Shown piece by piece: positions 316 through 40,000 of a stretch of 41,458 bases of DNA. Made by a program: the position numbers and the translations under genes. The stretch is taken from contig PS015011.1 in NCBI GenBank assembly GCA_048213135.1, forward strand, positions 22,308 to 63,765, given 5' to 3'. The notes under the pieces were generated by a model that saw nothing but the letters and a program-made list of their open reading frames with translations, was not told where the DNA came from and ran no database searches. Each line of letters begins with the position of its first letter. Positions within the stretch are counted from its first letter, which is position 1. The DNA comes from Reclinomonas americana ATCC 50394 (Eukaryota).

Positions 316-2430
316 CTGATGCGCCCCGCTGGTGCTGTGCGCTACTTTGCCGCTGCTCCGAATGTCATTGAGATCCGCATGCCGGGTGTGTGTGTGTGAC
401 GCGCACTGCTCCTTCCTCCCTCCTGTGCGTCACTCTGACTCACTCCTTGCGCAGCGCTCTCGCCCACAATGTCACAGGGCAACATTGTGTCGTGGAAGAA
501 GAAAGTCGGCGGTGCGCAGCGTGTGCTTGCGTTTTCGCGCAGTGTCTGTTGTTGACTGTCTTTGGTGTGCAGATGAGATCAAGCAGGGTGAGATCATTGC
601 CGAGATTGAGGTTTGTTTCTTGTTCTCTTCGTGCTGGCCGCTGTTTGCGAATACCAAAACGATTGCGTGCAGACGGACAAGGCCACGCTGGACTACGAGT
701 CGCCAGAGGATGGGTTTATGGCGCAGCATGTCAAGCCTGCTGGCACACAAGAAGTCCCCGTTGGCGATGTTTTGTCATTCTCTTCGTCATTCCACCGCCA
801 CTCGTTCGTCTCTTGCTCACTGGTGGCCGACCGCCGCAGCTCATTGCGTTGATGGTGGAGAATGCTGCTGATGTGGCTGCGGTGGAGAAGGGTGGTGCAG
901 CGAAGCCTGCCGCCGCTGCCGCTGCCGCTCCGGCTGCTCCGGCTGCTGCTGCTGCTGCCCCGGCTGCCGCTGCTGCTCCGGCTGCCGCCGCCGCTGCTGC
1001 TTCTGCGTCTGGTTTGACGCATATCTTCTTCGCTTAATGTACAGCAGGCTGCGGAAGCACTCACACCCCTCAAAATCGGCAGCAGGTGGTCGCGTGGCAG
1101 CGACTCCCTTGGCCAAGAAGCTGGCCGCCGACTCGGGCATCAGCATCTCGTCGGTGCCTGGAACCGGTCCGTCTGGTCGTGTGGTTGCTGCGGACGTGAG
1201 AGAGTTCAAGCGTTGCGTACTTTATTCTCGTGTGAGATCTTTGCGCTGCGAGTCTCGAGTATTAGTTGACCGACACGTGCGCGCGTGCGCGTGTAGCCTC
1301 TGCTGCTCCTGCCGCCGCCGCTGCCGCTGCCCCTGCTCCTGCTCCTGCTGCTCCGGCTCCTCCGTGCGTCGCCTGCTCTTTTCTTCAGCCCACTCCCCCT
1401 CTCATTCTCTTACATGGCAACTGACGAGCAGGGCCGCCGCCGCTGCTGCTGCCGCTGCTGCGGGTTACACCGACTTGCCTCTGACCAACATGCGCAAGGT
1501 GATTGCCGATCGCCTGGTCCAGTCCAAGCAACAGATTCCGCACTACTACTTGACCGTGAGCTGCAACGTCGACTCTCTGTTGAAGTTTCGTCAATCGCTT
1601 CCTGTCTCTCGCACAATGCGACTCTCTGACGGACAGATTTTCTCATCGTGCTCAGGCTGCGCGCGGAGCTGAACGCTGCCGGTGGTGAGGACTACAAGTT
1701 GTCGGTCAACGACTTTATTGTGAAGGCTGCTGCCTTGGCGTGCCGCAAGGTGCCGGCAGTGAATTCATCGTGGCTCGGCAACGCCATTCGTCAGTACGAC
1801 TACGTGGACGTGAGCGTTGCTGTCAGCACACCCAGTGGACTGATTACGCCCATTCTGAAGGACGCCGATCGCAAGGTAGTTCTTCTCTCGCTGCATCGTT
1901 GTCTCCGTTCTTGTATCCCACTCGGCAACTGTAGGGCCTGGCCACCTTGTCGAACGAGATGAAGGTGCTGGCAGAAAAGGCGCGCAACAACAAGCTGACA
2001 CCACCAGAGTTCCAGGTCTGTTGAATATTTTGCATTGTGCATGATGCCTGTGTCGTCTCATCGTCTATGCCTTTATGCAGGGTGGCACATTCACGATCAG
2101 CAACCTCGGCATGTTTGGCATCAAGCAGTTCACCGCCGTGATCAATCCGCCGCAGTCGTGCATTCTGGCGGTTGGTGGAAGCGAGAAGACAGTGGTGGTG
2201 AACCCGAAGGCCAAGTTGCGTGACACACGGAATGCCGTGTTGGGTGAGTGTTGAATCCCTGTCGGCTCATCGCCCGTGGCCACAGGGATGGTGAGAGCCC
2301 CTACACGACGGCGACGTTGATGAACGTGACGCTCTCTTGCGATCACCGTGTTGTGGATGGTGCTGTCGGCGCACAGTGGCTGCAGCACTTCAAGTCCTAC
2401 GTCGAGGATCCACTCAAGATGCTCTTGTAG
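316..2430 (+). CDS. DLAT: Mitochondrial pyruvate dehydrogenase E2 (dihydrolipoamide acetyltransferase); single lipoyl domain, 11 introns; first exon/start codon unresolved
   Basis: Spliced translation gives the lipoyl domain (MPALSPTM...EIETDKAT), Ala/Pro linkers, a peripheral-subunit-binding domain ([21 protein letters not shown]) and a catalytic domain ([27 protein letters not shown]). TAG at 2428-2430. Donors at 386, 512, 611, 769, 1012, 1212, 1364, 1585, 1876, 2016, 2215. Confidence 0.95.
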
Positions 2431-2530
2431 GCGCCTGGTGCCCACCGCTGTATATGCTGTGGTTTCTGTTGTGGACCGAGAATACAGCGGCAAAGTGTTG
2501 AATTTACATCAGCGCATCGACGCGCTCTAC

Positions 2531-6863: not shown

Positions 6864-7022
6864 AACTGCTGCTGCTGCTGCTCACTTACTCGTCAAGGTT
6901 TGTGTGTGTAGTGTTTTATAAATTCGTGGTGACTCAAACAAATTTTCGACGACGCCTGCTTCCTCCCTCTCTCCCTCTCTGTTGCACTCGCGCGCGCCCG
7001 CACGCAGTCTCGCTGCCACTCA

Positions 7023-7644: not shown

Positions 7645-9363
7645 AAGACCGCGGGCAAGGTGGTGGCGCTCAAGACGGACTCGGATGGACGCCTGCAGTT
7701 TGATGCCATTGTGAAGCAGGGGCAGCGCAAGGACAAGAAGATCTTTTCGACGCGCGCCGATCTGGATGAGAAGGAGGTGAGTGTCGTGGTGTGCACACAG
7801 AGAGAGAGAGAGGGAGAAAGTGAAGAAGAAAGTGTGTCTCTGTGTGTGGTGAGTGAGGGAGATGTATATTGATAGAAAGAGCCAGAGAGAAGCAAAGAAC
7901 TTCTGCACACCCAATGTGAGAGACAAGACTGCCATGTGAGGGAGCCGCACTCACACTCTTGCCCTCTTCTCTCCGCAGTTCGGTGAGGATGAACTGGCTC
8001 GACCGGATACGGAGGCGGAGAAGGAGATTGCGGAGAGGACACGCAAGGCGCTGGAGGAGAAGATGAATGCGCGGGCCAAGGCCGCACGGCCGCAGGTGGG
8101 CACGCAGCAGGAGGAGCCGCAGTACATTCGGTACACGCCAGCCACGCAGAATGCGGCGCACAACTCGGGCGCCCAGCAGCGCATCATTCGTATGAGTTTC
8201 GTGATTCGCATTGCTTGGTCGCTGAGAGTTTCGGGAACGGGTTCACTCGTGTGAGCTCACCTGTCGCTCCGTCACCCTTCAGTGACGGCGCCCACGGATC
8301 CACTGGAGCCGCCAAAGTTCAAGCACGTCAAGGTCCCGCGAGGTGACTGACTATTCTTTTATTTTTTGTGTCACACATAGTGGTGATGATGATACACTCA
8401 ACATTTATCTTCGCGTGCAGGGGCTGGGTCGCCGCCGGTGCCGGTGATGCACTCGCCACCGCGCAAGCCGACGGCGCAGGAGGTGCAGGATTGGACCATT
8501 CCACCGTGCGTCTCCAACTGGAAGAATCCTCGCGGCTACACGATTTCTCTCGACAAGCGTCTGGCGGCCGATGGACGTGGCACACAGGAGGTCACCATCA
8601 GCAACAAGTTCGCCAAGCTGTCATCGGCCCTGTATGTGGCCGACCAGACGGCACGCGAGGAGCTTGAGCAGCGCAACAAGATCATTATCAAGATGAAGGA
8701 GAAGGAACGGACAAAACAGGAGGAGGAGCTGCGCGAGAAGGCGCGCCTGGCACGTCAGGAGCGCTCCGGTGTGGCGGGCATGAACGAATCGCTGAAGAGC
8801 CAGTTGCGTTGCTGTACTCTCCCCTCTCCCCCCTCTCTCCCTCTCCCCTCTTCTTCTCACACTGTTGCACCAGTCCGGAGGCGGATGAAGATCTGCGTGA
8901 GCGTGAGGAGCTGCGTGAGATGCGTCGCAAGCAGCGCGAGCGTGAGCATCGCAAAGAATCGCTGCGCGCTTCGGGTGGACTGAAGAAGCGTGAGGAGGAG
9001 CGTGATATCAGTGAGCGAGTGGCCCTCGGTCAGGGACCTTCCGCGCCCTCCAAGGAGCTCATGTACGATCAGCGTCTGTTTAATGCGAGTCAGGGTCTGA
9101 CATCGGGATTCGCCGCCGACGATTGTTGCGTCTTTTGTTTACGCGCACCCACACGTCGCTTCCGGCAGCTCACTGTATGAACAGCGTATGCCGTGTACGA
9201 CAAGCCGCTCTTCAGTGGCAGCAGTGCCAATCAATTGTACAGGCCCAAGGCAGTGGACACGGAGGTGTACGGTGGCGGTGATCAGCTGATGGATTCGCTC
9301 ACCAAGACTGAGCGCTTCCGACCCGACAAGGGCTTCTCGGGCACCGAGGGTGGCAAGACGGAG
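7645..9363 (+). CDS. SNW1: SNW domain-containing protein 1 (SKIP/Prp45), internal exons; both ends fall in gaps
   Basis: YIRYTP, QRIIRMM..DPLEPPKFKH, VMHSPPRK, IPPCVSNWKNPRGYTISLDKRLAADGRG, RDISERVALG, YDQRLFN, YDKPLF, RFRPDKGFSG. Confidence 0.95.
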
Positions 9364-10455: not shown

Positions 10456-13400
10456 TCAGCGACCGCCGCCATATTCCACAACGGCGTCACTCAACTCGAG
10501 CGCGCTTGGAGTCAGCGGAACGCTGTCGTCGTCATTATTAGCCCCGTCGATATCGCTGTCATCCTCATCTGCGCCATGCCGGTACAGTTGATTCACGGAC
10601 ACGACTCCGTCAACGTCACCGTCGACATCTTCCAGTGGCACTTGGGGAAACAACTGCGGCGACACGGCACCAGCGTCCATAAGCGCTGCCGCAGATGGCG
10701 ACATGTACTGTGGATTGCAGTCGACGACGACGTCCGCTGCGCGGGCCATGATGGGCGACGGCATGCTGACGATTGCTGCCGCAGACAGGTCGACCATCTC
10801 AATGGCGGAGCCAGGTGCACGCGGTTGTGAAAAGCCATCGACATCTGTGCGAATCATTCACATGTTGGAGGAAGCGAACAGTGAGTGTGAGAGCGCAGCG
10901 AGTGTGTGTACATGAAGCAATACTCATGATCAGTCAAGTCAATCTTCTAATGCATCAGTCAATCCACCACTTGCACTCACCTCTGCAAGCATTCGGGGAG
11001 AGCTGTACGCTGACCCTTTTGACTTCCTTGCGCAGTCGGCAGTACGCCACAATTCCACGAATGACCGCAAGTAGCGTAGGCCCCGCGAGAATCGCGCCGA
11101 CGATGGCCAGCAGCGTGATGCTGACAATCACCTTAAAGTCGACAGCTGCTCTCGAGGCGAAGACCGTAGAAATCACAACAAGGCACCCAAGGCCGACAGC
11201 CTGTGTTGCACAAAAATGAGCTACTACAATGCCTAACACGCGCACTACAATAGTAATCGCTTTCACCTCAAGCACGTTGTTCGCGGTTCTCTCGTACGGC
11301 ATCACAACTAAGTGGACTGCCAAGAATCCAACGCAGATCAGCCAAAGCGCCAACGGCAGTGCATCAAGCAGGTTGTATGCTGCCAGCGGGAACAGTACAC
11401 TCAGCAGCACGAGGCGACGCGAGAGCTGGTATGCTGCGCATGAAAGAGGTTCTTCGGTGACAAGGAGAGATAAAGGGGAGCCGAAGGCAAAAAGGGTAGT
11501 TGCAGGCGAACCATAGTACCAGACAACCGAGTGTCGATAGTGATGATAGAGAATGCCGAATCGTCGTCGCACCTGTGGTAGTGCACTCGTGAGTCGGGGT
11601 TCAGTAGCAGTCGTACACACGCATGATAGGATGCAACCGACGCGGTCGTGTGAGTCATCCCTCTCAACAGCACCAGCAGCTCACCTGCTCAGTGTCCAGT
11701 CGACGCTGTCGTCGCAAGCGCACCGTCCAGTACACCAGACCGATAGGAGTGCATATCACCAACAACAATAGAATCACAAAGAGCGGAAGCAGAGTGCTCC
11801 ACCTGTTGTAATGATCGTCAGAGTGAGTCAATTGCAGACGCACCGAAGAAGATACGGTGACGCAACACTCCGCTAAAGCAAACAATACTCGGCTCGAAGA
11901 GCATCACTCGAGATTCACCGACGGTGGTGCAAGTGAAGAACATGAGCGCCGTCTCGGCAAATCCCTTGTAGGCGCCAGTGAGCAGCAGTACCACGCTGGT
12001 CATAATGTAGCGTGGCGATTTGCCGACGCGGGTAAACCATGCGACGAACACCAACCAGCGGCGCCCAGGAGCACCGTGATGCATGATGCGACCGCCACGC
12101 ACGCAGCGCTTGGTCATAAACATGGCCAGCGCTCTGTGAACAACAAAAGTCGTCCACAACAGTGACAAGTACACCAGTGGCGAGAGGATGCGGGAGATAA
12201 GATCGCCAACGGCATCCAGGTGCATGGGACAGCCGACGGAGAAGAATCGTGGTATCCAGAACGTGAGAAGACGGCTGAGAACGAGCACCTTGACATTCGG
12301 GTAGAACAGCAGAGTTGCCGTTTGCAACGTAAAAATAATCATCTCGGCAGACGCTGTGCATGCGGCAGATCTTGAATTCAGAAAGCCATCAGTGTCACCA
12401 TGTGCGCCTGACTTATTAACATACCTTCACCGGTGCCAAGCTGGAAGAAAATGTGTATGAAGAGCACAAACAGCCACATCCTGACGATGGTCCAAAACTG
12501 CGCCAAGCGCGACGTAGTGAAACACGGTATGCACTCCGATTCCCAGTGCGAGTAACCGTCCTGGGCAACGAAACACACGCAGCGGTGAGCTCGACACGAA
12601 AGCTGTCGTCTGAGGCACTCTCTGGCACGTGATCAACAACCTCGCACGCTCCGCACAGCGGAGAAAGGGACTGGCGATGTGAACCCGCCTTGCAATACTC
12701 CGCACCGACTTGCACCAATGTTGAATCTTGTCGCTCACAAAAGTCGTATGGACAAGTGTACGCGACAATCTCGTCATTCGAAGGCGGCAGAATCTCCGAT
12801 CCAGTATAGCCCTTGGCGCGCACCGATGTCGTATTCCAGTTGGCGCTAACCGGGAACGTCCACAGCTGGCTGGCCAACAAAACTGTGGTTCCGCCCTCGC
12901 AAATCACATTCAACGGACATCGACGACATTCCTGATCAAATGTCGACAACGAGTACTCGCCAACGCCGCACGTCTGACAGCCAATGGACGTGTACTGCAT
13001 TCCGGCCGGGCATGGTGTATTTTCCATCGTCGCTTGTGGAGGAGATCCAGAAAACAACCCGTTTCCGCTCAGCGACACTGCAATGCTCAACTCGTCGTCA
13101 ACATTGATCCCCGCCCGTTCACCCAACGAGTGCGATCGCCCCGTCGTAGATTCGGTGTTGTTGGCACCATTTCGCCGAGCACGCTGGGAGACAAAGAGCG
13201 AAAAAGTCGCTTCGCCGTCCTCCGTGGCCTGCGATTGATCTCGTGTCTGCGCAGACCAGCACTGCAAATGAGAGTGCCGAACCGAGGTGCGTTTGTCAAC
13301 ATTGACATTGAATGAGACTCACCGTGTTGCAAGCTACACATTGCACGCGAAATAGTGTTCCATCCAGCGTGGACATACGCTGACGAAACACGTCAAGTGC

Positions 13401-16400
13401 CCACACGCGTACAATACGCGGATCCGACGGTGAAGGATATGTTACATTGTTGCGCGACATCACGGCGACGTCGACGCTGAATAGTGCTGCATCGTAACAG
13501 AGAGAATTAGATATGTGCGTGTTGGAGACGTCATACTGAAAGAAGCAAGAAGAGATAACGCAACTACTCGCGACGTTACCGCCGGCAACATTGCTCGCCA
13601 CATTGTCGGCAGCCACAACATTACGCGCTTCTTGCCACTGGCTCCAGCCGCCAGCTTCTTCGAGTGCTCTGTGGACACTTAGAAGCATCTGCGGATCGCC
13701 GATACCATTCCAGAAGATACCACCGCCAGAGCCTTCGCCCAGCAAGTGCGTTGCGCGCGAATCTCCAACCAGTGCCTCATTGCCAACCACTTCCACGTCT
13801 TGCATCAGAATTCCCACTGGCGTCAACGTTGCAAGAGTCATATTGATTGCCAAACCACCGCCGCGACTTCCGGATAAGTTGCCAACGAAACTGCTCGACT
13901 GCAGCCATGTGCGTGTGCTACTGGAAACGCTGGCTCCACCACCGTCACCGCTGGTCGCTGTGTTCGTCAGGAATCGACAGGCAACACACGTTGTGCTGCC
14001 ACGCCCACCTGAGAACAGACCACCACCAGCAGACGATGCAATATTGTCTTGAACAGTGCAAGAGCGCAATGTGACCGTCGGCTGGTCCTCCGTCGACACT
14101 CCACCTCCAGCCACTGCCCGGTTCCGCGTTAGAACAGAGCCCGTCGCGGTCACTGTTGCCCTCTCGGCCGCCGAAAGTGCGCCACCAGTGCCTTCCACAG
14201 ACGTGTTCCTGTCAAATGTCGTGCTGTTGAGATGGGCTTGTGCGTTGCCAGCTACCGACGCTCCACCACCAGAAGACTGAGCACGACCAGAAATCAATCG
14301 CCCGCGAGCGTCGATCCATGTGCCACGACCGCGGGCACACACCTGACCCCCAGATGTGTCCGCTCTGTTGCTGGCAAACTCCGTGTCTACCGTTGTCACA
14401 GTGGCCACCTGCGCCACAAACACTGCACCCCCCGAAAGCACGGCAGTGTTGGTGATGAATCTGCAACTTTGAATTTGCAGGCTTGACGATCCGTCGGCGT
14501 ACAGGCCGCCTCCGTCATCAGCAGCATTGTCAACAAAGGCAGTGCGAAGGAAAACGTTATTGCTGTCCTCACCCGCATACATACCACTGCCGAAAGCTGC
14601 CGTATTACGCTCGATAACACAGTCAGTCCACGACCCAGTCGACTGTGCATTCGCGAAAATGGCACCACCAAAGTTACGCGCTCGATTGCGCCGCAATGCC
14701 ACTCCGTCAACCGCGGTGACAGATGATGTCGCGGCCATGTACACACCACCGCCGTTGTGCGATGCCGAATTGTCGGACACAGAGCTTCCGACAGACATAC
14801 GGAGACTCGCTTGGTCACCTCGCACAGCGACTCCGCCACCATACTGTGCAGTATTACCGATGACAGTTGTGTTGAGCATGGTTACTTGGCTGCCAAAGTC
14901 ACTGATCACTACACCGCCACCATAGCCTGCCGAGGCAGCGTTGTCAGCGACTGTGGAGTTAGCCAGCAGACTGGTCGGACCACTGAGGGCCACACCACCG
15001 CCAGAAAACGACGAACCGTTGCGAGTGACATTGGCAGACGCCAACGTGGAGGTGGAGCCAACAACTGCACCACCGCCCACAACAAAACTTCCAGTCACAG
15101 TGTTCCGTAATAACAGAACATTGGTGGCCACACTCCCGTTGTCCAACAACAGAGCACCGCCGCCAGTCGACCGTCCCCCACCCCTGATGGTCTGTTGAAG
15201 CATGGTATTCTCGACGAACGTTGACGATCGCACCTCAGCCCCGTTTGCCAATAGAACCGCACCCCCACCACAGAAGTCACCCGAAGAATACTGAGAAGAA
15301 CCCGCAGCTCCCGCATCCACAACTACGTTTCCCCGAAACTCGCAGTCGGCAGCGGACACCGGCAATCCAACCAATAGTGCACCACCGCCGCCGTTGCGCC
15401 CACTCCCTACACCACTTTCAGAGTTGTCCGCGCCACCAGCCCCATCGAGACGTGAAGTGTTGTTGAAAAACGTGCATTGTTGAACTCGAACCCTCTGCGC
15501 ACGACAAGTTGTAAGTCACTCCCCACTCTGTCGCCTACACGTCCTGAGTGTTGTGCACCTTTGAATGAGTAACCCGGCCACTATAGCCCACCAAAAGTGC
15601 ACCCCCACCACTGTACGCGCCAGAAGACGCCCCATTCTGCGAACTTTGACCTCCAACTCCGTTCTGCGAAGAGGAATTGTTGACGAACTGAACTCCAGTG
15701 ACAGTCTATTGATGGTGACACTTGTGAGAACGACAAGTTGCCGACAAACGCAGATGAGAGGTGCACAAACCGAAAATGGAACTCCGGACGTCAGCACTGG
15801 TAAGTACAACAGAGCACCGCCGCCACCAGAAAACATGGCGGAACTCAATGCCGAAAGCGCTGCGCGTGGACCTCCATTGCCTGGGCATGTGGAGTCTTGG
15901 AATAAGTGTTCTGCGAAGAAGTGCACAAACTCACTCATCTCACCGTTGAAAGCAGCGGTGTTGTTCTGAAAATTCGAGTCACTGAGCTGTAAAAGAGTGA
16001 GCGATGATGTGCAACGTTAGAAATGCAGACGGAAAAAACCATAAAGATTCGAAGAAGTGCAACCAGCAGAGCGCCACCTCCACTGGCGACTCCCATGGAG
16101 TTGCTTCGACTCCCACTGTCCGAACCACCCATCGAATTACGAAGGGCAACGTTGTCCATGAAGCGACAATTGCGCACATCGGAAGTGGGCTAAAAACAGC
16201 AACGTCAACCACACCAACCACGATTGCGAATGTCAACGGAACCCCGCGAACAGAAAAAATATGCTACTCACGTTCTGTCCAACGCTGTCGCTGGCGGATG
16301 TGATTAGCACGGCACCACCGCCATTCACTGACCCAGAAGCGGACACATCGTTGCTGAAGCGGCCACCGGATCCGTTATCAGTGGCGCCATTGCTGCTGAA

Positions 16401-19400
16401 TGTACAGCCGTTGATTGTCTTGTGTAAACAGCGACGGTTCAGGACGAAGGGGAGCCTGCAGCGCTATAGCACAGCATCGACAGCAGCAGGCTCACCTGCG
16501 AACTGAAAACATCAGTGAACAGAGCGCCACCTCCGTTTTGGCCACGCTCGGATTGGGCGCTCCTGGCTTGCACATTCACTGATGAGCCTGCGAAAAATAT
16601 CAGTAAGGATCGATCTCCCGAGAGGGACGACCGATTATCAGGCTCACCTTGGCCACCACTGCCGTTGTTCACTGCCATGTTCGAGGTGAATGTGCTGTCG
16701 ATCACAGACTGCGCAAGGCAACATGTACGATTGTTTCGTGAGACACGCGAGCGTGCGTGCTTTTCGATCGTACGCAAACCTGCGAATATGCATGCGCCCA
16801 CACTGCACCACCACCATTCTCGCCACCCGAACTCTCAGCAGTTCCGATACCGCTAAGCGTGGCGACACCTGCACACACAAATGATTTGTTCAGACCAGTA
16901 CATTTGCCAGTAGCATCCGTGTGTAATACGTCGTCGGCCGCACCACCGTTCCCATTTTCCGACGCCAGATTTGACACAAATCTACAGCCCTTAATGGTCT
17001 ATGCACAACCCGGTTGGTCTTCTCATCACCTGACGCATCGAAAAACAATCGACCTGACGCAACTTGAATGACACGAAGTCCAGCATACACGGCGCCGCCA
17101 CCATTTTGACCGCAAAGACTGTCAGCATTGTCACCAGTACCTGTGCGGTTGCCGTGCGCTGCTGAGAGACCGACATGAACATTTTTTTGGAGAGCTCGCT
17201 GATACGCACGCACCGGCCTTTCCGTTCCCAATTGCAGAGTTCATAACGAATGTGCTCGCCGAAATTGTTTGCCACAAGGTGTAGGGCTCAGCAATACCGG
17301 ACCACACAGCGCCACCTCCGTGCTGTCCATTTTCACTCGACGCAGAGGCATCACCGCCGGCTCCTGCAAATTCGAACGTGATGTGCTCTCTCGCGAACGG
17401 GATTGGAATAAAGTACCAACTACGCCAAACCTCCACGGCCATTGTTGACCGCTAGGTTGGACAAAAACGTGCAGTTGGCAATCGTCTGCGACTCCTTTCG
17501 TCAGACAAGGGATACGAGAACAGAGAGAAAGAGACAGCGTCAGCAAAACCTCGTCGGCTCCAATTGTTCCGTAGAATGTCATCACCGCGCCACCTCCAGT
17601 TTTTGATGCCGTTGCTTTAGAAGAAACCGAGTTACCGACGCCGCCACAACCATTCTGCACCGCTTGGTTATTTGTAAAGGTGGAGTTCCACATCTGCAAA
17701 CCTTTGTTGGAGGAAATGGAGCGAGTCACCGAGTGGCAGCAATGCACATGACGCACCAGCTGGCGAACTGACTCATTGAGGTACGGGAATATGCTAAGAA
17801 TTCCTCCACCACCAGAGATGCTGGACAGGCGAGCGGTGTACGGATATTCCAAACTAATGCCAACTGAATTGCCACTGCCGATGTTGTTGCTTCCACCGTT
17901 GCTGTTGCGTATTGCCACATTGTTGGCGAAAGTGGAGAGCGCAACCTGGCGGAGTGTGTTACAAGGCACCCTCCACTAAGCGCGAGGTTCACGATGCCAC
18001 TTACCTCCACACGCGTCCACCCTCGAATCCACAACGCGCCTCCTCCATTGCAACAGCTTGCATCAGTGGTTGCGCCAGCATTCAAATACTGCCCTCCGTT
18101 GCCGCTATCTTGCACGGTGTTGTTGGAGAACGCTGAGTCCTGCTCGGGTGCGCTGTCTTAGGCAAGAGAAAACACATGCATGCACCGACGCACACGCACC
18201 GTGATAAGAGCGGACCGCTCCACGCCCACCACTTGCGCACCGATCAATAGCGACGCAGCCCCACCACCGATTTGACTTCCGCCAGAGGCTGTCTTGATAC
18301 TTGACGCTGCTCCGCAGCCAACTGACGAAGCGGAGCACTTGACACCGTTACCACTCTCAACAACAGCGTTGCGGGAAAATGTTGATTGCGAAATCGAGAA
18401 AACGGGACTTGTGGCTACTCCAAAGAACAGCAAGCCACCGCCTCCCACAAAACTAACTCCTGAGGGATTTGAAACATCACCGTTGCCACACTGTGAAACG
18501 ATGTTGTTCGTCCACAAACTCCCCCAGTCGCTGAAGGAGAGACTGGAGGCTCCAGCCAAGCGAACAAACGCCGCACCACCGCCGGTGGTGCCCCGGGAGA
18601 GCAGAGTGGCCGTGTTATTTGCGAATGTCATGTTCCGGAAGGAAACATTTACCGTGCCGGAGCCAGCTGCAGTCAACAGAAACAGCGCGCCACCGCCGGC
18701 GGAGCCGACAGACGTCGCACTTGAACCGGATCCGACAACGGCGTTGGAGGTAAACGAGACGTTGCGCAACGTGACGGCGATGCTTGGCGCAGCCTTCAAG
18801 CTCAGTGCGACTGCGGCTCCGGAAGCGTCATCGCCGCGCTTGGTGCAGTTGGTCCAGGACGAGTCCATGACGCTGACAGTGGTAAACGAGCCAACCGCTG
18901 ACACAGCAGAAGCCTGGATGCCTTTGGCGACGCTGCTATGAGAACCAAACACAGAAGACGTCACCACGAGATCTGCACGAGAGGCCGCGGTTGCATCAAG
19001 CGACAAGAAGCCCGCTTTCGAGTTGACAAAGTTGCAGCCGGCAATGGCGACTCGTGAGGCAGCAGCCGCAGGCGACGTCCACGACACTGACGGCTCTGTT
19101 GAGCCACCAATGACAGTTAGGCCAGTTATCTGCAACTCGGCAGTCTGTTGCAAGACCAGAAAGGCCGAGGTGGCGGCTGTGATGATTGGCGATGTTGCTG
19201 ACGTGGAAAGCAAAGTCACGTTCCTCCCTACCACGTGAGGAGCGGACGTGATCATAAGCATCACGCGAGGCACACAAACACACAAGCACACACGCGCACA
19301 CACACAGGGAGAGAGAGAGAGAGCACAGTGCACACATATGCAGAGCACATTCACTATCATTCGCGCACCCCTCTGCATGCGCACATCACGCATGCAAACA

Positions 19401-19884
19401 CGCACACATTCACAGCCGTAAAACAACGCACCCGTGAAGGACAATACACTACTGACAGTGTAAGCACCATCCAGAAACGCCACTTGCAGCTGCCAGTCCG
19501 ATGCCGCAACATCGTAGCCACGGGATGAACATGCACCCAAAAGCAGTGACGCAACAAGCGAGCACGGCACATCCTCGAGAGATGCACCGCTGCCACCACA
19601 AGGCAGCGTGGTGGCACCAGCGGGCGACACGAATACTGTGAGCAGAAGTCGTCGATCGAGGTCAGTGGATTTCTGGCTGCATGTGCGATTGTGGCGCACA
19701 CGCACACACCTTCACACAGTGCGGAAGGAGAGACCGAGTGTATAGCCGCATTCAGTGGCGCTGTGTATTCGTTTCCGCTGGCAGAAGCAAAAGCGAAGAC
19801 CAAAAACGCACACAATACTACAAGTGTACATGTGCGCTCTCGAGCTCGTCGGGATTGGCGTTGTACAACAAGTACAGCAGCCAT
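10456..19884 (-). CDS. Very large surface protein: signal peptide, Pmp-like GGA(I/L/V)/FxxN beta-helix repeats, Cys-rich GCC/ephrin-receptor-like module, multi-pass TM C-terminal domain, acidic tail
   Basis: ATG 19884 followed by hydrophobic LVVLCAFLVFAFASA. Dozens of FxxN...GGA repeats (ORFs 18158-19705, 13296-15374). CPAG..GCQTCGVGEYS..CRRCPLNVICEGG. TM region includes RFGILYHHYR..WYY...RRLVLL and HLVVMPYERTANNVLE. Stop at 10456. Not every internal junction was resolved. Confidence 0.85.
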
Positions 19885-20209: not shown

Positions 20210-21615
20210 ATGCAGCTGTTAGCCTTTGCGCGCTCCGTGCGCCCTCTGCTCGCTTGCCGGCATCATCGTTGCGCACGTTCTCTGCAGCAGTCAGTGCACG
20301 AGCAAGACTGATTCTCATCGTGTTTGATTCCCCCGTCAGCAGCATTGCTGCGTCAGTGCACGACTGCCGCTTTCTCGACCTCTTCTCCTGCCCAGTCATC
20401 GGTTCCATCATCCTCGCCACAGCCACCCGGTGTGTATGCTCCTGTGCATGCATGTGGATTCCGACTGTTGTCTGACGGAATCTCCCTGCTCCTTCCTGCT
20501 CCCCACAGTGAGTGCACCGCAACAACAACAACAACAACAGGACAAGGGCGGGAGTGGCAAAGAGGGAGGCGGTAGTGGTGGTGGAGCTCGGCCCAACGAG
20601 ACCAAGCGATCGATCTTTGGCTGGGAGCTTCTGATTGCTGTGCCAGTGGCGATGTTCTTCTCCTTTGTCGGTGTTCCTCGTTGCGTGCTGTGTCGTGCCG
20701 TCGCGCCGTTGATCCGCGCGGCCATATGTCGCTGATCGTGCCGTCATACGTTGTTTTGCAGCTCTGTACTACGGGTGAGTCTGCCCTCCATGTCTTCTTG
20801 ATATTCACTGCGCTGTTTCACGTGTGTGCGCGTGTGTGTGTGTGTATAGTGTCAAGAGCTCCAGCTGGCCCACAGTCGAGGGTGTGATTGTCAAGTCGGA
20901 TATCTTTGAGCAGTCCCGCAAATCGGTCGTGTTCTCCGGTAAGTAGTGCAGGGTGGAGGCAGCGCATCATGTGATCACTGTATGTATGACCGCGGTGTGC
21001 AGGCACGGACTATTTGCCCGATATCAAGTACCGTTTCCGAGTGCCCGGCGAGACGGCCGATCGCGAGGGATTCATTGTGTCGTTCCGTTACTGGGGTGCG
21101 CCGCCGGCCCGGCCCGAGGCCGAGTCTCTGCTCGCGCTGTACCCCGTCGGTTCCAAGGTGTTGAACTCGTTCACACCGCCATGGTCCGCTAGCGCTCACT
21201 CACTCCTTGCTGCGACACGTGCAGGTCACTGTGCACTATGACCCGTCGCAACCAGGTGTGCTCGCGCTCTCTCTCTCTCTCGTCATCTTGCTTCGAGGGC
21301 GTTCCCTCTTTGTTGGTTTGTTGGTTGACGATGCATGTATGTATGTGGCGGCAGAACGCGCGGTGTTGATTCCTGAGATCGGTTGCATCGGTCTGAGTGC
21401 GGCGTTCTCCAGCGCTGCTGTTCTCGCGTTCGGCTTCCGTGTGGGTCCTGCGCGTGGTATTGTTGCGTGTGAGCGTGCATGTGCATTTTGCACTCGATCA
21501 CTGTGTTTCTCAACCATCGGCCACACAGTTCACCAGTGCCGTGCTCATCCTCATGGGCTGGCTTGCGCAGTACGGCTGTCAGAACGCCAACAGAGAGAAA
21601 CCAGTGGGTGCTTAG
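20210..21615 (+). CDS. DUF3592-domain membrane protein with predicted mitochondrial presequence
   Basis: Spliced: MQLLAFARSVRPLLACRHHPALLRQCTTAAFST...TM...SSSWPTVEGVIVKSD..YLPDIKYRFRVPG..AESLLALYPVGSKVTVHYDPSQPERAVL..TM. Includes a 13-nt exon at 20762-20774. TAG at 21613-21615. Confidence 0.75.
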
Positions 21616-27370: not shown

Positions 27371-29695
27371 TCAGTCGTGTCCCGCGATCTTCACGACTCG
27401 TGCCTGTAGCCGTTGGCTGCCTGTACGTGCCTTGTTCATGGTCTTCTCCAGCTCGGACTCGCCGTCCCTCGAGGCGTTCGGACTGCGGGGCGGTCAGCAG
27501 GATCAACAATAGCGACGACGACGACCACCACACCCACGCACCGATGGCGAATCTTTGGTCGCTCCTCGTCGTTGGCGTCGTACGTGCGCAAGTTGCTCGG
27601 CAGATCGAGCACCAGTCGCGTCCACTTTTCCTTGATCCGCTCCGCCGTACGCTTGTTGGCCTCCGTCTCGCGCGGGTGACGCGAGTACAGATTCACCAGC
27701 ACGCCGATGCGCGAGTCCTTCAAAAAGTCGTCGCGAATGCCCATGGAATCGCCCTGATCACCCGGCCGTTGTTCAGTGTCGTCGCCCTCGCACGGCAAGT
27801 CAAGCAGGATGCGCAGAATGCAGGTGCGCAGGCTGAGCGGCGGCAGCGACTTGTCCTTGGCGTTCGGCTTTAGCCAGTCGAACAGCGCCGACAGTAGTGC
27901 GTTCTGCAGCAGCGGTCCGACGAAACGCGGACTGTGGACGAGAGTGAGTGAATTGACACGTGAAGGAAAAAAGCACACATGCAGAGAGAGGTGAGCATGC
28001 ACTCAACTTGCGGACGTACTGCTCCAACTTTGACAGCAGTCGCTCCTTGTGAATCGCTGGCTTGCCCTCTGCATTCAGGCGCTCGTCGGTCTGCTGCGCC
28101 ACTTGCATTTCCTTGATGAAACGAGAGGCCTATGGCAGGGGTGAGACATCAATGATTGCGCATCTCACATCGCACTCGCACATACCGCCTGCACGTAGGA
28201 CTCGCGTTTGGGGGCCAGATCGGTGACTCGCCGCTTGATGTACGCCGTCACCTCGTCCTCCTCCTTCTTCTCTGTGGGCACACATACTCGCGTGAGGCCA
28301 CGTGCCTGCGGTGTGAGAGAGGCACACGCGTGCACTCTGACGCACTCTGCGACTTCTCCACCGGCTGCTCCGCAATCGCACTGTCAATGTTGATGCGCTT
28401 TCGCCGCCGGCCGACACCCTTCTCTTGTTCGTCGTCGCCACTCTCCTCCTCGCCAATCTCATCGTCGTCCTCGTCCTCGTCGCCAGACTTCTTTCGCCGG
28501 CGCCGCTTGCCTTGCGTCTCTCGCTCCTCGTCCATTTCGGCATCCATCGCAGTCTGCTCGGCCTCCATCGCCACACGCTGCACAGCGACACTGTGAGTCT
28601 TCCTCACACACGCACACACGCGCACAGCAGCAACAGCCATTGCACCTCCTGCACGAATCGCTCGACGGCCTTCTTGAACAGCGACTTGTACTCGTGCTTG
28701 ATCTTGTGCTTGAGGTGCTTCAAGTGGCTAATCACCATGTCGCGCACCGTCGACCGATTCACCGTCGTCAAATCCTCCAGCTCATACACCACCTCGCGAG
28801 TGACCTCTTCGATCTGTCGCTTGTCGAGCTCCTCGTCGTTCTCCTCCTCCTGCAGAGCCGCCGGCCGTTCCGCCTTGCCCTGCTTCTTCAGCTTCTTCAA
28901 CTTTTTCAGCTTCGACGACAGACTCTCGTCGTCGCCATCTCCCTCGCCCTCCTCGTCCTCTCCATCGCCATCACCACTCTGGCACACCGTTCAGCAAGGA
29001 CGACACACATACAGAGAGAGAGAGAGAGAGAGAGAGAGCATGCAACTCACCTTTTGTCGTTTCCTAGGTGGCTCATCATCGTCGTCGCCAAACAACTCGT
29101 CATCGTCGTCGCCCTCGCCCTCGTCGCTCTTCTTTGCGCCCTTGCTCAACTTGCGCCTCTTTTCCTGTGTCTTTTCACCTTCTCCACTGCCACTGTCATC
29201 GTCATCGCTGTCGGCAGCAGCCTTGGATCGCTTTCTCAGCTGCACTCACACATACACATCGTGAGCAGTGTGGTGTGTGTGTGTGTGCGTGTGCGTGTGC
29301 GTGTCTTGCTCACCAGTCGCTTCTTCTTCTCCTTGGGTGCATCGTCGTCCTCTTCTTCATCCTCCTCCTCCTCGTCTTCTCCACTGGCCACTTTGAAATC
29401 GCCATCGGCCTCCTCATCTTCATCGTCGTGCTCGCCTGCAAGCATGCACACACACATGTACGCACATGTGAGAACAAAGGACAGCGTACACTGCTATGTG
29501 TCTGTGTGCGTGTGANNNNNNNNNNNNNNNNNNNNNNNNNNNNNNNNNNNNNNNGAGAGAGGGAAACGCACCAAACAGGTCGTTGTACGCGTTCGACTCT
29601 GCAAACGATCACACACACACATGAGCGCGTTGAGTGATCTCACACACTCTTGCACACACACATGCACACACACACACACCGCCACCGCTTTCCAT
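27371..29695 (-). CDS. IWS1: Transcription elongation factor IWS1/Spn1 with acidic N-terminus and an extra DEK-C-like helical domain
   Basis: EMQVAQQTDERLNAEGKPAIHKERLL, LSALFDWLKP..KSLPPLSLRTCILRILLDLP, LKDSRIGVLVNLYSRHPRETEANKRTAERIKEKWTR (TFIIS-N/IWS1 domain). ATG 29695, TGA 27373-27371. Small gap inside an intron. Confidence 0.9.
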
Positions 29696-33877: not shown

Positions 33878-35422
33878 TCACGGATCGGCATCGAGACGTG
33901 CCACCATGTCTGTCTGCGCGACGCGCTGGTATGGGTGAGCCAGCGTCATGGCCACGTTGTGATACACCTGTATACATTGGACTGGTTAGCAACTGTCACG
34001 ATTGCTGTATGCAAGCGGCCTCGTGCACACACACCTGGTGGTTGAGGCGACTGTGGTAGGCGAAAGCGGTGCCCGCGTTGCGGATTCGTGTCAGTGTCTG
34101 CACGAGAACGGTGAAGACTTGCTGCTTCAGAGCCTTTTTCTGCCGCGTGCAAAATACGGAGAATATTAGCGGATGATTGGAGCAGCAAGTCTACACACAC
34201 ACACACGCATAAAAAGAAGAAGCTCGCCTCTTCCCATCCCGGTTCCTCTGGATCTGTGCGCTCGCTGTGCCATCAACACGTGGTGTGAGTGACCGTCCTT
34301 CCTACGATATGCCAAACTCCTGCTTTGCGCGCACCACAAGAACACAGTATCCATGTAGAAGTTCTCGTCGTTGACCACCCGTTCGACTGCACGCATGGCC
34401 GACGGCGTCTCGCTAAACGTGGGCACGACATTGGAGCGGCCGTAGATGACCACAGCGCGCAGAATGAACTTGCCAATCTCTTCACCGCGCGGCAAGTACG
34501 GCTCACTGCCACGAAAGACAAGTCAGCGGGCGTGGCGAAGATGTGGCGACTCCCAGCGCTGCACTGCCCGATCGCACCATGACTCAAACACACTCGACAT
34601 GTCGAAGGATGTGTAGACGGAGCCGGGTCGGAAGTCGCCCAGCTTGCGCACCGCTGTGAACTCGCTGTATGTGAATGGTTGCACCTGGAAGAGGAGTGCA
34701 TGAATAGGGGGGAGGGCTGAGGTGAGAGAGGGCGCAAGGTGTAGGCCACCACGCACCAGTGTCGCCCGCTCACGCATGGTGGCCAGCGCGTACTCGTGCT
34801 TGTTCGAGAGTCGGGCCTTGGCGTGAATGAACGACTTGATGGCGTTCTTGACCACATCCAAGCGCGTCTCGTAACGACCGCGCATGTGCATCCTATGTTA
34901 AACACACACACACGCGTGAGTGAACAAGGCGAGTGCGTGCACAACAGCCGGGGGACAAGACACAACTCTTCGCCAGTGTAATCAAAATTCCTGCGCGCAC
35001 ACACACACAAGGAGACAACAATCAGCGCGCGCGCGTCGGAGAAAACACACACCCTAGCAGACAACAGCAACGCACATCATCTCGTCACCGAGATCAATGA
35101 AGAACATCTGTCGAGTGTGTGAGCTCGCAAGTCATCACCGCCATGTGCACTCTCTCTCTCACACAGACGCAACAATCTTCTCTGGGCAGCTCTTGGGCAA
35201 CTCCAGCCGCTCGGGCATTGGCGGCGGCACTGGTGCCACTGATGCAGCAGCAGCAGCTGACTCTTCCTCAGCAGGTAATGCAGCAGCAGAGGGTGCTTCC
35301 TCATGTGGCTCCGCGTGAGGAGGCTCGCTGTGTGTGGCTGCGTCGGCGGCCGGCGACGCCGCTGAGAAGCTCGTGTAGGCGTCTTCGGCCGCGCGGCGTG
35401 GAGAGGTTCGCGGGGAACTCAT
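33878..35422 (-). CDS. BABAM1: BRISC and BRCA1-A complex member 1 (MERIT40), vWA-like
   Basis: CPEKIMFFIDLGDEM, TRLDVVKNAIKSFIHAKARLSNKHEYAL, SFDMSSVF, ILRAVVIYGRS, NFYMDTVFL, YHNVAMTLAHPYQR. ATG 35422, TGA 33880-33878. Confidence 0.88.
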
Positions 35423-35544
35423 TCGCTGTGTGTGTGTGTGATTGGCTGTTGTCCGACGCGACGCGGACAGGGAAGATTTCGTTTCTCATTTGTGTTTTTT
35501 TCATTGTTAGTACTCTTGGTTCTCCACCTGGCCGGCTGCCACGA

Positions 35545-36919
35545 TTACGCCTCTGTGTCTTGCGAAAAGTAGTCGTCGTCGAAGTGGTGCACGCGGATCA
35601 CACCTTCCTCGCCACCGCTGACAAACCTGCATCAACAAGGAACAAACACAAAATGAGTAATCATCATCATCACGACTTCATCCTTCCATCCACAACGCAC
35701 CCTCTGCCGTCTGGTGCAAACTGCAGCGTGTTGACGGGTCCAAAGTGACCGGCCACGGCGCCCAGCTCCATGCCGTAGTACTTGTGGAAGAACTTGGTCT
35801 CGAACTTGCCGGCACGACCCGCTGTTGTTGTCACATCGCGAGCTTGCTGACCACCACCCAGAATCACGTGGTCGCGGATCGGACTGCGCACACGTCACAA
35901 GCTAAGCACACACGAGCAGCGCAACGCACCACCAACGCGCCACATCCAAACCTAATGTCCACATCGTTGACAATCGTGTCGCTCTCGTAGGCTTTCGCGC
36001 ACTCGCCGCTCCGCATGTCCCACATCTTCGCCGAGTGATCCGCAGACGCCGACAACACGCAGTGGCCGTTGTAGGCTGTCCTGATGTGGTTCACCGTGCC
36101 GTCGTGTGCGTCGATCTTGAGAATTAGCCTGCCCGTCTCCGTATCCCACTGTCGCACCGTCTTGTCTTCCGAGCACGAAATCACCGTGGCGTTCAGCGGA
36201 CCCCACTTGCAGTCGGTGATGCGCTTGTCGTGGCCGAGAATCTTCATCTTTGGTTGCGTCGTCTGTTCCCGCGGATCAAACGACTTGCTGGTCATCAGGT
36301 CCTCAGCCACATCGTACAGATTGATGGCCGGCTGGTAGCCGAAAGTGGAATCGGTGCACGACAAGAACTGTCGCTCACCCAGTGCCAGCGACACCGCACG
36401 GACCTGGCGACTCGTGTGTGAGACAATGCGCTGGCGGAAAGCAGTCAAGAACAACGCAACGGCAGTCGGATGCTCAATGGACCACAGCAGAGTGCCGGAT
36501 TGCACATCCCAAATGCGCACATTCTCGTCACCACCGGCGCTAATCAGGCGGGTCGAGTCGCGCGAGACGTCCACTTGCCACACCACACCATTGTGGCCCT
36601 GCGCAGAGTGTGAGCAAGAGAGAAAGAGAGAGGAAGAGAGGAGAAGCTCAGAAAAGAGACCTTGAAAATGCCCATTCGCTCGCCATTATCCGTGCGCCAC
36701 ATGGTGATCATCTTGTCCTTGGAGGCGGTGAACAGCAGATCGCCGTCGTGGTTGTAGCGCACGCACTGTGCAGTGCAGCTTCAGTGAGACATGTCGGCAC
36801 ATGCACACACACACACACGCGCACACACGCACACACGCACACACAACGAGCGCGTGTCTGCCAAGCAGTGCACTCACCGTGATAGGGCGCTCATGGCCCG
36901 TCAACATAATCGGTCGCAT
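35545..36919 (-). CDS. EIF3I: Eukaryotic translation initiation factor 3 subunit I (WD40)
   Basis: MRPIMLTGHERPIT|CVRYNHDGDLLFTASKD..NGERMG, HVILGGGQQARDVTTTAGRAGKFET, GHFGPVNTL, SGGEEGVIRVHHFDDDYF. Five introns; TAA 35547-35545. Confidence 0.97.
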
Positions 36920-37083
36920 GGTTGCGTGTGATGTGTGTGCGTGATTGGAGGTTACTGCGAGGTAGAATGGAATTCCACCTATGTCAGTAACCCCCTTTAG
37001 GGGTGGGACAGAATACAACAGCGAGCACTGTCCATTTACTTCGTGTTTGTGTGTGCGCGTGCGTGTGTGTTGGCCTTGCGCTC
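36920..37083. promoter_or_regulatory. Bidirectional promoter EIF3I/SRPRA with a CCAAT-like box and dyad elements
   Basis: 164 bp between divergent ATGs. ATTGG at 36944-36948, palindrome TGGAATTCCA at 36968-36977, ACCCC-N5-GGGGT at 36990-37004. Confidence 0.6.
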
Positions 37084-40000
37084 ATGCTTGATCAGTTTGT
37101 GATTTGCACACGTGGCGGCCTGGTGCTGTTCCACTGGGAACCTCGTGGCGCGCTTCCTGTGCCCGGTCGTCCCATCAACACGCTCATGTCCGCACTTCTC
37201 GAGGCATGTTCCTCCGCCCTGCCTTGCTCTCTCTCCGTTGCTCTCTGTCGCACCGCGCTCTCTCTCTCTTTCTGTTTGAATGTCTCTCAGTTGGATTGAC
37301 CACCAAAGTCTCAAATTGGTTGTTTCTCTCCTCCTGTGCGCGCGCGCGCGTCACACAGGGTCGCAGTGGCAGTGTGGAGACGGAGACACACGCGGTGAAG
37401 CATTTGGTGGTCAACGAGCACAGCATCATTCTTGCAGTTGCGTTGTTGAATGCGATCACACAATGCGCGCCGAATCACTTACGCCGAATCCCTCAGGCGG
37501 TGTTTAGCAAGAAGCGACCGCTGCCGTACATAGACCTGCTGTTGCGACAGGAGCGCGATGCGTTTGTGAAGGAGTTTGGCGCGGCTGCGTTGCGGCAGCC
37601 GGCGCTGCATCGGTTTGAGGAGTTTGTCGGGCGCTTTGACGCGGTGCTGGCCGACGTTGAAACCGATCACTTTTCGCGACGTGGTGCTGGGCGCAAGATG
37701 GTGACCTCGGCCGGCAGCGACGGCGACGATGATGAAGCGGAGAATAGCGATGGAGAGGTGTCGTCGCATGCGGTGCGAGGCAAGAACGGCACCATGACCA
37801 CCACCACCACCACCACCACGACGGTCACGGCGTCGGAGGAGGACGAGTCGTCGGGACCGCACACCCCGCAGGCGGATCGCTTCTTGCGCGTGGGCAACGA
37901 TCTCGGCCGCTCCTCGTCCGATCCCATGAGCTTGTCGCCCGACGGTTCCCCGTCGGCCGCCAGCGATGGTTCCGGTGTGCAGAGTGACCAGGGATCGCCG
38001 TCGTCGGCGGGCGACGCTGCTCGCAGGGCACTAGGCAAGCTGCTGCCCAGAGGAGTTGGTGAGTTCTCTTTGTTGTTGCTGTCGTGTGTAGATTGTCGCT
38101 GATTGGCTCGTGGTCAGGCGCCAAGGCTCCTCGTCGCACTGGTTTGGTGGCCAAGGCGGTCAAGAAGCCAGCCGAGTTGCGTGCTTGTGATTGTGTGCAT
38201 GAGTGTTTGTGCATGTGCTCACGATGGTGTTGTTGTTGTTGCTGCTGCCGTGATCGACAGGCCACCAAAACCAAAGGGCAAGCAGAAGACGAACTGGGAC
38301 GATCTGATGCCCGACGACGGAACACGCGCTGTGACCGAGGATCGCATTCGCGCTCACGACCGATCGGCGGTGCTGACAGAGGAGGAGAGGCGAGAGGCCG
38401 AGGAACGCGAGGTGACGGAGACACGTCGTCGCTTCCTGAGGAGCCCCAGCAGTGGTAACGATGGTGGTGGTGCCAGTGGATCGGGGTCCGGCAGCTCCGC
38501 CCCTGCCGACAATCCGCGCACCAGTGGAGGCTTGCTGTCGTACTTTAGTCGGCTGGTGGGTGGTGCACCGCTGACGGAGGAAACCCTGGCGCCGGCCCTG
38601 GAAAAGGTCAAGGACAAGCTGATGACGAAGAATGTGGCCGCCGGTATCGCCGACGAGCTGTGTGCCGGAATTCAGCAAGAGTTGCTCGGCAAGAGCCTCG
38701 GCACTTTTAATAGTTGCGTGGGGGAAGGAGGAAATAGGAGAGGGGAGGGAGAAGAGAAGAAAGATGAGGAGGAAGAGTGTCACAAGTACTGATCAAGGGC
38801 GCACTCTGCAGCTGTGGCGTCGTCCGTGTCCAAGGCACTGGAGGATTCACTGCGGCGTATTCTGACACCGAAGCAAAATATCGACGTGTTGCGCGAGGTG
38901 ACGCGTGCGCGGGAGGAGGAAAATCGACCGTACACGATTGTGTTTGTGGGTGTGAATGGTGTGGGCAAGAGCACGTCGTTGGCCAAGGTGTGTGTGAGAG
39001 AGAGAGAGAAAGGGAAGGGAAGGGAGAATGAGTGCGCAGCTCACGGTCGATTATTTCCAGGTGTGCTACTGGCTGCTTCAGCAACGCAAGCAAGTGATGA
39101 TCACGGCGTGCGACACATTCCGTTCGGGCGCCGTAGAGCAGCTGCGTACTCATGCGCGTGCCTTGGACGTGGAGCTGTTTGAACGTGGCTACGGCAAGGA
39201 TCCGGCCGCCATTGCGCAGGAGGGCATTCGATATGGTGCGTGAGACAGGGGAAGGAAGGAGAGATGGGGAGGGGGGAAGGAGGGAGGATGTCAAGGAATA
39301 GAGAGGAAAGGAAGGAGATAAGAAGAACGTGACAGAGGCAGAGAGGGGAAGGAAGGAGAGAAAGAGAGGGAAGAAAGTGAGGAGAGAGAGAGAGAGAGAG
39401 GAAGGAAGGAAGGAGAGAGTACGGAGGAAGTAAAGAAAGGAGTGAGAACTTGAGGGAAGAGTGAGCGAGCGGCGCAGTGAGAAAAGAATGAAAGAGACTG
39501 AGGCAGAGGTGAGAAGGGAGAGAATGAGACGGAAGAAAGTGAGGAGAGAGAATGGGGAAAGGAGAGAGAGGAAAAGGGAAGCGTGAGAGGGTCAGAGAGA
39601 GAGAGAGAGCAGGAGAGAGAAAAGAATGAGAAGACTGCAGAGTTGGGTGTGTGTGTGTGCGTGTATTCTAACAGCCTCCCTCTCCTACTTGCACAGGCAA
39701 GGACAACGGCAAGGATGTGGTCCTGATCGACACAGCCGGGCGCATGCAAGACAACATGCCGCTGATGGAGGCACTGGCCAAATTGATCCACTTCAATTCT
39801 CCCGACTTGATTCTCTTTGTCGGCGAGGCACTGGTCGGCAACGACGCCGTGGATCAGCTGACGAAATTCAACCAGGCTCTGCAGGACCTGACCCCGGCCG
39901 GTCGCCCATCGCGTCTCATCGATGGTATTGTGCTCACCAAATATGACACTGTCGACGACAAGGTTCGATATGTGCAGTATCTTCCTCGCTCGCTCGTTCG

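Follow-up and report, generated by a model that had tools for sequence, protein, structure and literature searches.

GT-T-NN-GT donors as a major class of 5' splice sites in a nuclear stretch of Reclinomonas americana, possibly read by U1 in a register shifted by one base

A small set of atypical human 5' splice sites departs from the usual pairing with U1 small nuclear RNA (snRNA). Both the shifted (+1) and the bulged U1 registers have been validated for such sites, as laid out, with reference to Roca and Krainer 2009, in the portions of PMC4856993 that deal with noncanonical registers. The same portions give predicted numbers of human sites of 68 (+2/+3 bulge), 51 (+3 bulge) and 349 (+3/+4 asymmetric loop), which are exceptions next to the much larger number of introns in that genome. 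They also describe a test oligonucleotide for the shifted register, in which the consensus from +3 to +8 follows an exon A, GU and a single additional base. Here we analyze the 5' splice sites (donors) of a 41,458-nucleotide stretch of DNA from Reclinomonas americana ATCC 50394 (assembly GCA_048213135.1, contig PS015011.1, positions 22,308 to 63,765 of the forward strand), which as a whole is referred to as the window, and in which positions are counted from the first letter, with (+) and (-) denoting the strands. A first-pass annotation of the window had noticed that many of its introns begin with GT-T-NN-GT, had likened these donors to the exceptions described by Roca and Krainer, and had proposed that donor recognition may be modified, through a variant U1 or U6 snRNA or through altered contacts of U1C, Luc7, SNRNP27 or Prp8. 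The comparison with these exceptions is apt, given that, in the portions of PMC4856993 just mentioned, human sites are predicted in the tens to few hundred per register. Judging from the sequence, a noncanonical 5' splice-site register that is rare in humans would be routine here, by a mechanism that we infer below.

Throughout this work, donors starting with GTT-NN-GT, that is, with G at +6 and T at +7, are referred to as class B, and donors with the usual G at +5 as class A. Class B resembles the human shifted register, in the form in which PMC4856993 presents it, in having a cut GU, an extra base, a consensus that arrives one position late (G+6, U+7) and no G at the last exon position (-1). 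However, two differences stand out. First, the human register is a rare exception proven by means of a suppressor U1, whereas here it would serve some 25-45% of introns. Second, class B has a tight consensus of its own, GTTGCGT, including a C that the standard U1 cannot pair. The human +2/+3 bulge, +3 bulge and asymmetric loop registers, again as presented in that source, share with class B the GUU start and the resumption of pairing further downstream, but they keep their exon-side pairs, so that a G at -1 is favoured, whereas class B lacks it. The ordinary U2-type introns of intron-rich protists are, like those of class B, GT...AG introns of 57-99 nt with a CTNAY motif 11-27 nt from the 3' end; unlike them, the introns of the window have a bimodal donor consensus, whose two modes are offset by one base.

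The shifted register is raised only as a possibility where a tunicate paper touches upon it (PMC13326754), and what the relevant sections of two further sources report is that Andalucia godoyi is intron-poor, all of its 134 verified introns being GT...AG, with no donor logo given there (PMC7050145), and that jakobids may be intron-rich, as noted in 2006 (PMC1501061). Our literature search, in which supplementary intron tables were not covered, found no eukaryote with shifted-type donors as a major class and no report on jakobid donor sites.

To avoid assuming the motif under study, junctions were fixed without any donor motif, by either of two routes. First, all frame-open GT/GC...AG pairs near breaks in homology were enumerated, and their spliced translations were scored against 8-12 homologues. 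Second, single exons were scanned against Pfam profiles or chains of the Protein Data Bank (PDB), and a gap-free continuation of the coordinates across the junction was required. The latter route was used for EIF3I, with the coordinates of PF24805, since the homologue search and two PDB searches were dominated by WD40 proteins with many repeats. The resulting fixed sample consists of 16 introns from five genes, all of them in this one window, of which seven have class B donors, six have class A donors and three have donors of neither class.

The seven fixed class B introns, with a slash marking the exon-intron boundary, are the following. In DLAT, the intron at 1585..1655 (+; 71 nt, gaa/GTTTCGT...CAG) is the best GT/GC-AG pair against 11 homologues and the sole GT..AG pair among equal-scoring free boundaries, and PF00198 runs continuously across it, namely, position 42, a split codon and position 44. 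In SNW1, the intron at 8196..8282 (+; 87 nt, tga/GTTTCGT...CAG) is the best pair against 12 homologues, with a score of 2517 versus 2273 for the next GT donor, at 8190, and the one at 9125..9184 (+; 60 nt, att/GTTGCGT...CAG) is also the best pair, with 2148 versus 2054 for a GC donor 3 nt downstream. SR-alpha contributes the introns at 37437..37496 (+; 60 nt, in frame and stop-free, gca/GTTGCGT...CAG), the best pair against eight homologues including SR-alpha of Seculamonas, the alignment becoming gap-free once this intron is removed, and at 38713..38811 (+; 99 nt, ata/GTTGCGT...CAG), the best GT/GC-AG pair by homology. The IWS1 intron at 27932..28007 (-; 76 nt, caa/GTTGAGT...CAG) is flanked by exons whose matches to PDB chain 9eh1_O stop at residue 46 and resume at residue 48, a single split codon falling in between, and is the sole frame-keeping GT/GC-AG pair within 15 nt, with the caveat that the upstream exon, of 40 residues, matches this chain weakly (E=1.2). 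Last, for the EIF3I intron at 36404..36460 (-; 57 nt, in frame and stop-free, gcc/GTTGCGT...CAG), the match to PF24805 reaches position 94/95 in the upstream exon and continues from 96 in the downstream exon; left unspliced, the open reading frame (ORF) matches the profile in two stretches.

All seven introns have a GT 5' end and an AG 3' end at the fixed junction, and all seven donors have G+6 and T+7 and lack G+5. Their lengths, from 57 to 99 nt, fall in a range common to the ordinary introns, and a CTNAY branch-like motif whose A is 11-27 nt from the 3' end occurs in all of them and in six of the ten others; on the basis of these shared features, both classes are probably handled by the same U2-type machinery. 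When the boundaries were left free, homology placed every class B junction within a few bases, and whenever a GT..AG pair appeared among the near-best boundaries it was the pair given above, with the exception of 38713, whose pair scored 33 below the best and fell outside that list.

Two side observations concern these introns. Six bases upstream of the donor at 8196, an ordinary-looking GTATGAGT is found at 8190 (+), with a C at exon -1; its use would delete two conserved SNW1 residues, and it could be a tandem alternative donor. As for the two stop-free introns, their retention would add 20 residues (37437) and 19 residues (36460(-)) in frame.

Independently of homology at each junction, the window was modelled with a gene finder blind to the donor, which uses no donor matrix and chains exons on the strength of GT/AG, codon usage, intron length and an acceptor matrix. 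It was retrained after a version trained on housekeeping exons had missed a gene of divergent codon usage at 10.5-19.8 kb, and it recovered eight of the 11 donors that had been fixed up to then. ORF length alone was rejected as a coding signal, many long ORFs being in wrong frames. A second, donor-aware model adds a learned donor model to the first, so its class B picks are partly circular. Of the fixed class B donors, the donor-blind model agrees with 9125, 38713 and 28007(-), leaves 37437 and 36460(-) unspliced, and 8196 is picked only by the donor-aware model.

At its core, the observation of class B donors holds and is statistically strong, and they make up roughly a quarter to two fifths of introns. 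The word GTT-NN-GT accounts for only 89 of the 5442 GT sites in the window (1.6%), but for seven of the 16 fixed donors; with the addition of 36877, a consistent seventeenth, the binomial probability of seven in 17 is 5e-9. The donor-blind model, in turn, places class B at ten of its 73 donors (p=3e-7), including 769, 1212, 8803, 38176, 28007(-) and 21462, and the donor-aware model at 17 of 74. The union of the fixed introns and those on which both models agree gives 11 of 46 rows (45 distinct donors, 38988 being listed twice). The first-pass annotation had counted 16 shifted sites among about 55 donors, and some of the sites that it listed were not confirmed, as detailed below. The sequence supports GT-T-NN-GT donors as a major class in this window, and not as a rare exception.

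The positions that define the class are also linked to each other, beyond what single-position base frequencies would give for GTTNNG among the donors of the window. In the fixed set plus 36877, T+3 comes with G+6 in eight of nine donors, versus none of the eight without T+3, and in the donor-blind set T+3 comes with G+6/T+7 in ten of 24 donors, versus one of 49 (Fisher p=3e-5). An unsupervised two-component donor model converged on a/GTTGCGTg (31%) and G/GTGtGT (69%). At the level of words, GTTGCGT is found in 27 copies on both strands, 2-3-fold enriched over the 10-16 copies expected under Markov models of orders 1-4, which also means that several of these copies are probably there by chance. 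Among the 22 copies inside modelled genes, 18 are in the sense orientation and four are antisense, and the base before the 27 copies is A in 33% and G in 15%, figures that are too diluted to tell the two classes apart.

The exon side differs between the two classes as well. At exon -1, the seven fixed class B donors have, in the order in which they were introduced, A, A, T, A, A, A and C (five A, one T, one C and no G; the fifth and sixth being those of SR-alpha at 38713 and of IWS1), whereas G is present in all nine other fixed donors, or ten of ten with 36877 (Fisher p=5e-5). The same holds in the donor-blind set, where the end of the exon played no part in the choice: G is found at -1 in none of the ten class B donors, versus 19 of the 31 donors with G+5 (p=7e-4). 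When read from its 3' side, moreover, A/GTTGCGT is AG/GTGCGT with a single substitution, located at the ordinary +1. Against the 5' end of the standard U1, the number of matched positions goes from 3-5 (canonical register) to 4-8 (+1 register) in 12 class B sites, the predicted duplexes being weak, and from 5-9 to 3-7 in six ordinary sites.

From these patterns we infer, with a probability of about one half, that class B donors are routinely read in a U1 register shifted by +1, possibly by an adapted U1. There are two kinds of 5' splice site, namely, AG/GT with G+5 (GTGCGT, GTGAGT, GTGTGT), and A/GTTGCGT or, more loosely, GTT-NN-GT, and U1 would pair with the same eight-base target in both. 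In class B this target would be displaced downstream by one base relative to the cut GU, so that the intron G+1 would pair at the place usually taken by the exon G-1, and the exon A-1 at that of A-2. It would then be left to the GU itself to set the cut site, at the stage of U6 and Prp8. Opposite the C+5 of class B, the U1 of this organism may have a G; both classes would then be near-perfect matches, class B with a single mismatch. It is tempting to go one step further and, at somewhat lower odds, tentatively to read the window as a two-register splice code, in which U1 or a second U1 species would sit one base off the cut phosphate in up to two fifths of introns. In a code of this kind, recognition and the choice of the cleavage site may be routinely uncoupled, and the spliceosome would have adapted to this, perhaps by way of an altered U1 5' end pairing with GCGU.

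Several observations weigh against a shifted register of U1, or against the certainty with which it can be read from these donors. First, class B duplexes with the standard U1 are predicted to be weak in every register, from +0.7 to -5.1 kcal/mol, compared with -4.1 to -8.8 kcal/mol for ordinary sites, and C+5 is a mismatch to the standard U1; such weak predicted duplexes are no less in keeping with an altered or dedicated partner than with a simple change of register. Second, control words matched in composition are already in the sense orientation in 63% of cases, which leaves the strand bias of GTTGCGT marginal (p=0.048). Third, the sample is limited to 16 fixed introns from five genes in one 41-kb window, and its junctions are those predicted by homology together with the GT-AG rule; at 1585 and 37437, a slide of both boundaries by one base in the free-boundary scan yields an identical protein. 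Fourth, 2215, 20680, 34966(-), 17063(-), 13564(-) and 3128(-) are picked only by the donor-aware model, which was trained on the motif.

The alternative that survives best, although we consider it unlikely, is a dedicated RNA, either a second U1 or a single U1 whose 5' end is longer or otherwise changed, which would pair with GUUGCGU in line with the cut. Each donor class would then have its own partner, instead of one partner using two registers. Animals are known to have variant U1 genes. Such an RNA would account for the high uniformity of class B (G+4 in eight of ten and C+5 in seven of ten donors in the donor-blind set; C+5 in six of seven in the fixed set), for its poor pairing with the standard U1 in any register, and for C+5, which is not accounted for by the two pseudouridines in the 5' end of the standard U1. 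On its own, however, it predicts neither the loss of G nor the gain of A at exon -1.

It is at this exon position, too, that a bulged register loses most of its appeal. Here the ordinary U1 would pair with -2/-1 and +1/+2, one U at +2/+3 would bulge out, and pairing would resume from +4 to +7. Bulged pairing is validated for rare human sites, in the portions of PMC4856993 cited above, and it keeps G+1 opposite its usual partner. However, with this register G should stay favoured at exon -1, where it is found in none of the seven fixed and none of the ten donor-blind class B donors, as opposed to nine of nine and 19 of 31 ordinary ones. The shifted register is therefore favoured over a bulged U, a choice that the first-pass annotation had left open, since the exon never ends in G in class B, and the bulge appears to us improbable.

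Less probable still is that class B is an artefact of mis-assigned junctions, the actual donor being a GC 3 nt downstream in a GC-AG intron, or the second GT, or the extra T being an error in a homopolymer, or the supposed introns being in-frame coding insertions. GC donors at +3 are indeed second-best in four scans and tied at 2215; the class B introns at 37437 and 36460(-) are in frame and stop-free; and 10-16 copies of GTTGCGT are expected by chance. However, the GTTTCGT donors at 1585 and 8196 offer no GC alternative, and the GT donor gives a gap-free fit to the homologues or profile coordinates, an extra residue being introduced by the GC alternative. Specifically, a GC-AG donor at GTT/GCGT was rejected after scoring lower at 9125, 37437, 38713 and 8803, with a tie at 2215 only, and with PF24805 continuity fitting the GT. 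The second GT, five bases on, scores lower, and overcalled Ts, being random, would neither track the base at exon -1 nor hit seven of 16 donors. Finally, a U12-type origin was discarded because no class B donor carries the extended RTATCCTT-type consensus that defines the 5' end of such introns, and introner-like repeats because the sequences downstream of GTTGCGT are unlike one another.

Beyond the fixed set, class B donors can be graded by the evidence at hand. All 25 positions in the list of the first-pass annotation carry the expected word on the expected strand, namely, 19 GTTGCGT, two GTTTCGT and one each of GTTTTGT, GTTGAGT, GTTGTGT, GTTACGT and GTTGCGC, the last of these, at 20268, being without a T at +7. 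The core of this list stood, with seven of its donors fixed, but about a third of it is neither fixed by homology nor predicted by a model.

Three donors are probable members of the class. First, in SNW1, 8803..8873 (+; cca/GTTGCGT) has the top homology score, with the small margins of a variable region, and is a donor-blind pick. Second, in the linker of SR-alpha, 38176..38260 (+; cga/GTTGCGT) is predicted by both gene models. Third, 21462..21570 (+; att/GTTGCGT), which was absent from the first list, is also predicted by both models; the gene around this donor, at about 20.0-21.6 kb, scores weakly.

Three further donors, all in DLAT, are possible members. These are 769..839 (+; gat/GTTTTGT), found by both models at a border between a domain and a linker, where homology is no guide; 1212..1388 (+; agc/GTTGCGT), also found by both models, and ranked below sixth when pairs in the alanine-rich linker were scored against homologues; and 2215..2285 (+; caa/GTTGCGT), found by the donor-aware model only, in a loop that is variable in PF00198, and in a tie with a GC donor when scored against homologues (3343 vs 3346). 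Neither model picks 20268, 24877, 26986, 30852(-), 31429(-), 35173(-), 5894(-) or 11866(-), and homology fixes none of them. From this group, 26986, 31429(-) and 35173(-) are plausible by ORF logic, and 30852(-) adjoins a gap of Ns, the junction search giving no solution there.

The remaining fixed donors provide the comparison. Class A is represented by 2016 (GTCTGT), 38988 (GTGTGT), 39236 (GTGCGT) and 39963 (GTTCGA) on the forward strand, and by 35951 (GTTTGG) and 35700 (GTGCGT) on the reverse strand. Three of them serve as well-placed ordinary introns: in DLAT, 2016..2080 (+; cag/GTCTGT) is the clear best pair, with PF00198 position 146 followed by 147; in EIF3I, 35627..35700 (-; agg/GTGCGT) has PF24805 position 298, a split codon and position 300 in continuity; and in SR-alpha, 39236..39696 (+; atg/GTGCGT), of 461 nt, is the best pair by homology. 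The last of these is the one long fixed intron, and 83% of it is purine (A 39%, G 44%), whereas most short introns are rich in T or C. The seventeenth intron mentioned above, 36877 (-; GTGAGT), is consistent with the others, its upstream exon being too short to scan.

The fixed donors of neither class, without G+5 or G+6, are 1876 (GTAGTT) and 8343 (GTGACT) on the forward strand and 36660 (GTCTCT) on the reverse strand. All three are preceded by AG or by G at -1, as if carried by pairing on the exon side. In genes of low confidence, donors with gct/GT and without G+5 or G+6 were modelled at 16472, 17535, 19413 and 4348 (-); these may be errors of the model or a further pattern.

The window itself is 41.5 kb of eukaryotic nuclear DNA of about 57% G+C, with eight gaps of Ns and many (GT)n and (CT)n runs, and it is dense in genes that are split by short introns. 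The identities proposed at first sight were confirmed for DLAT (dihydrolipoamide acetyltransferase, E2; up to 2430, +), which carries PF00198, for SNW1 (7.5-9.5 kb, +), for IWS1 (27.1-29.4 kb, -) and for SR-alpha (37.1-40.2 kb, +). EIF3I (35.5-36.9 kb, -) is recognized by Pfam PF24805, and a CCDC81-like protein, on the reverse strand, by its HU-CCDC81 domains.

A very large gene occupies 10456-19831 (-). One of its exons, of 739 codons (13299-15515), contains GGGALL-type repeats and has a match to the right-handed beta-helix family PF13229, and the gene as a whole scores negative under the codon model trained on housekeeping genes because of its strongly different codon usage. An Rfam scan of the window gave no RNA gene, and so no snRNA gene, at gathering thresholds, and with E values of up to 1 it gave only low-complexity microRNA and small nucleolar RNA matches attributable to chance. 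In the first 220 nucleotides of the window, a tandem GTACGTAC-type repeat gives way to (CT)n, and this stretch produces spurious sub-threshold microRNA matches.

With regard to relatives, the closest named protein is the SR-alpha of the jakobid Seculamonas ecuadoriensis, which is sister to the SR-alpha of the window with 100/100 support in a tree of 17 rows, at 74% identity; this makes the organism of the window a probable relative of the jakobids. In the protein collections searched, the best identities were at most 76% for DLAT and 65-66% for SNW1, and the clusters of the ten best matches that we looked up contained no named relative nearer than Seculamonas. A scan of metagenomes with the SNW1 exon returned 76 loci, and among the four that we examined (L064, L069, L070 and L072) there was no close relative in which donors could be compared. 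These four come from other eukaryotes; identity in one segment reaches 79% at most, and the introns sit at different positions, according to the alignments inspected for three of them.

It has long been asked how the exact cut site is picked once U1 is in place; in model organisms both steps nearly always coincide and are therefore hard to separate. If a shifted register of U1 were indeed used for class B donors, these would constitute a natural, genome-wide experiment on the hand-over of the 5' splice site from U1 to U6, and the organism of this window would show co-evolution of its snRNAs and its 5' splice sites. A practical consequence is that gene finders with a single donor matrix will mis-annotate genomes of this kind, because class B donors score poorly and a neighbouring GT or GC is chosen in their place, and the same should apply to further poorly studied relatives, provided that the trait is present in them too.

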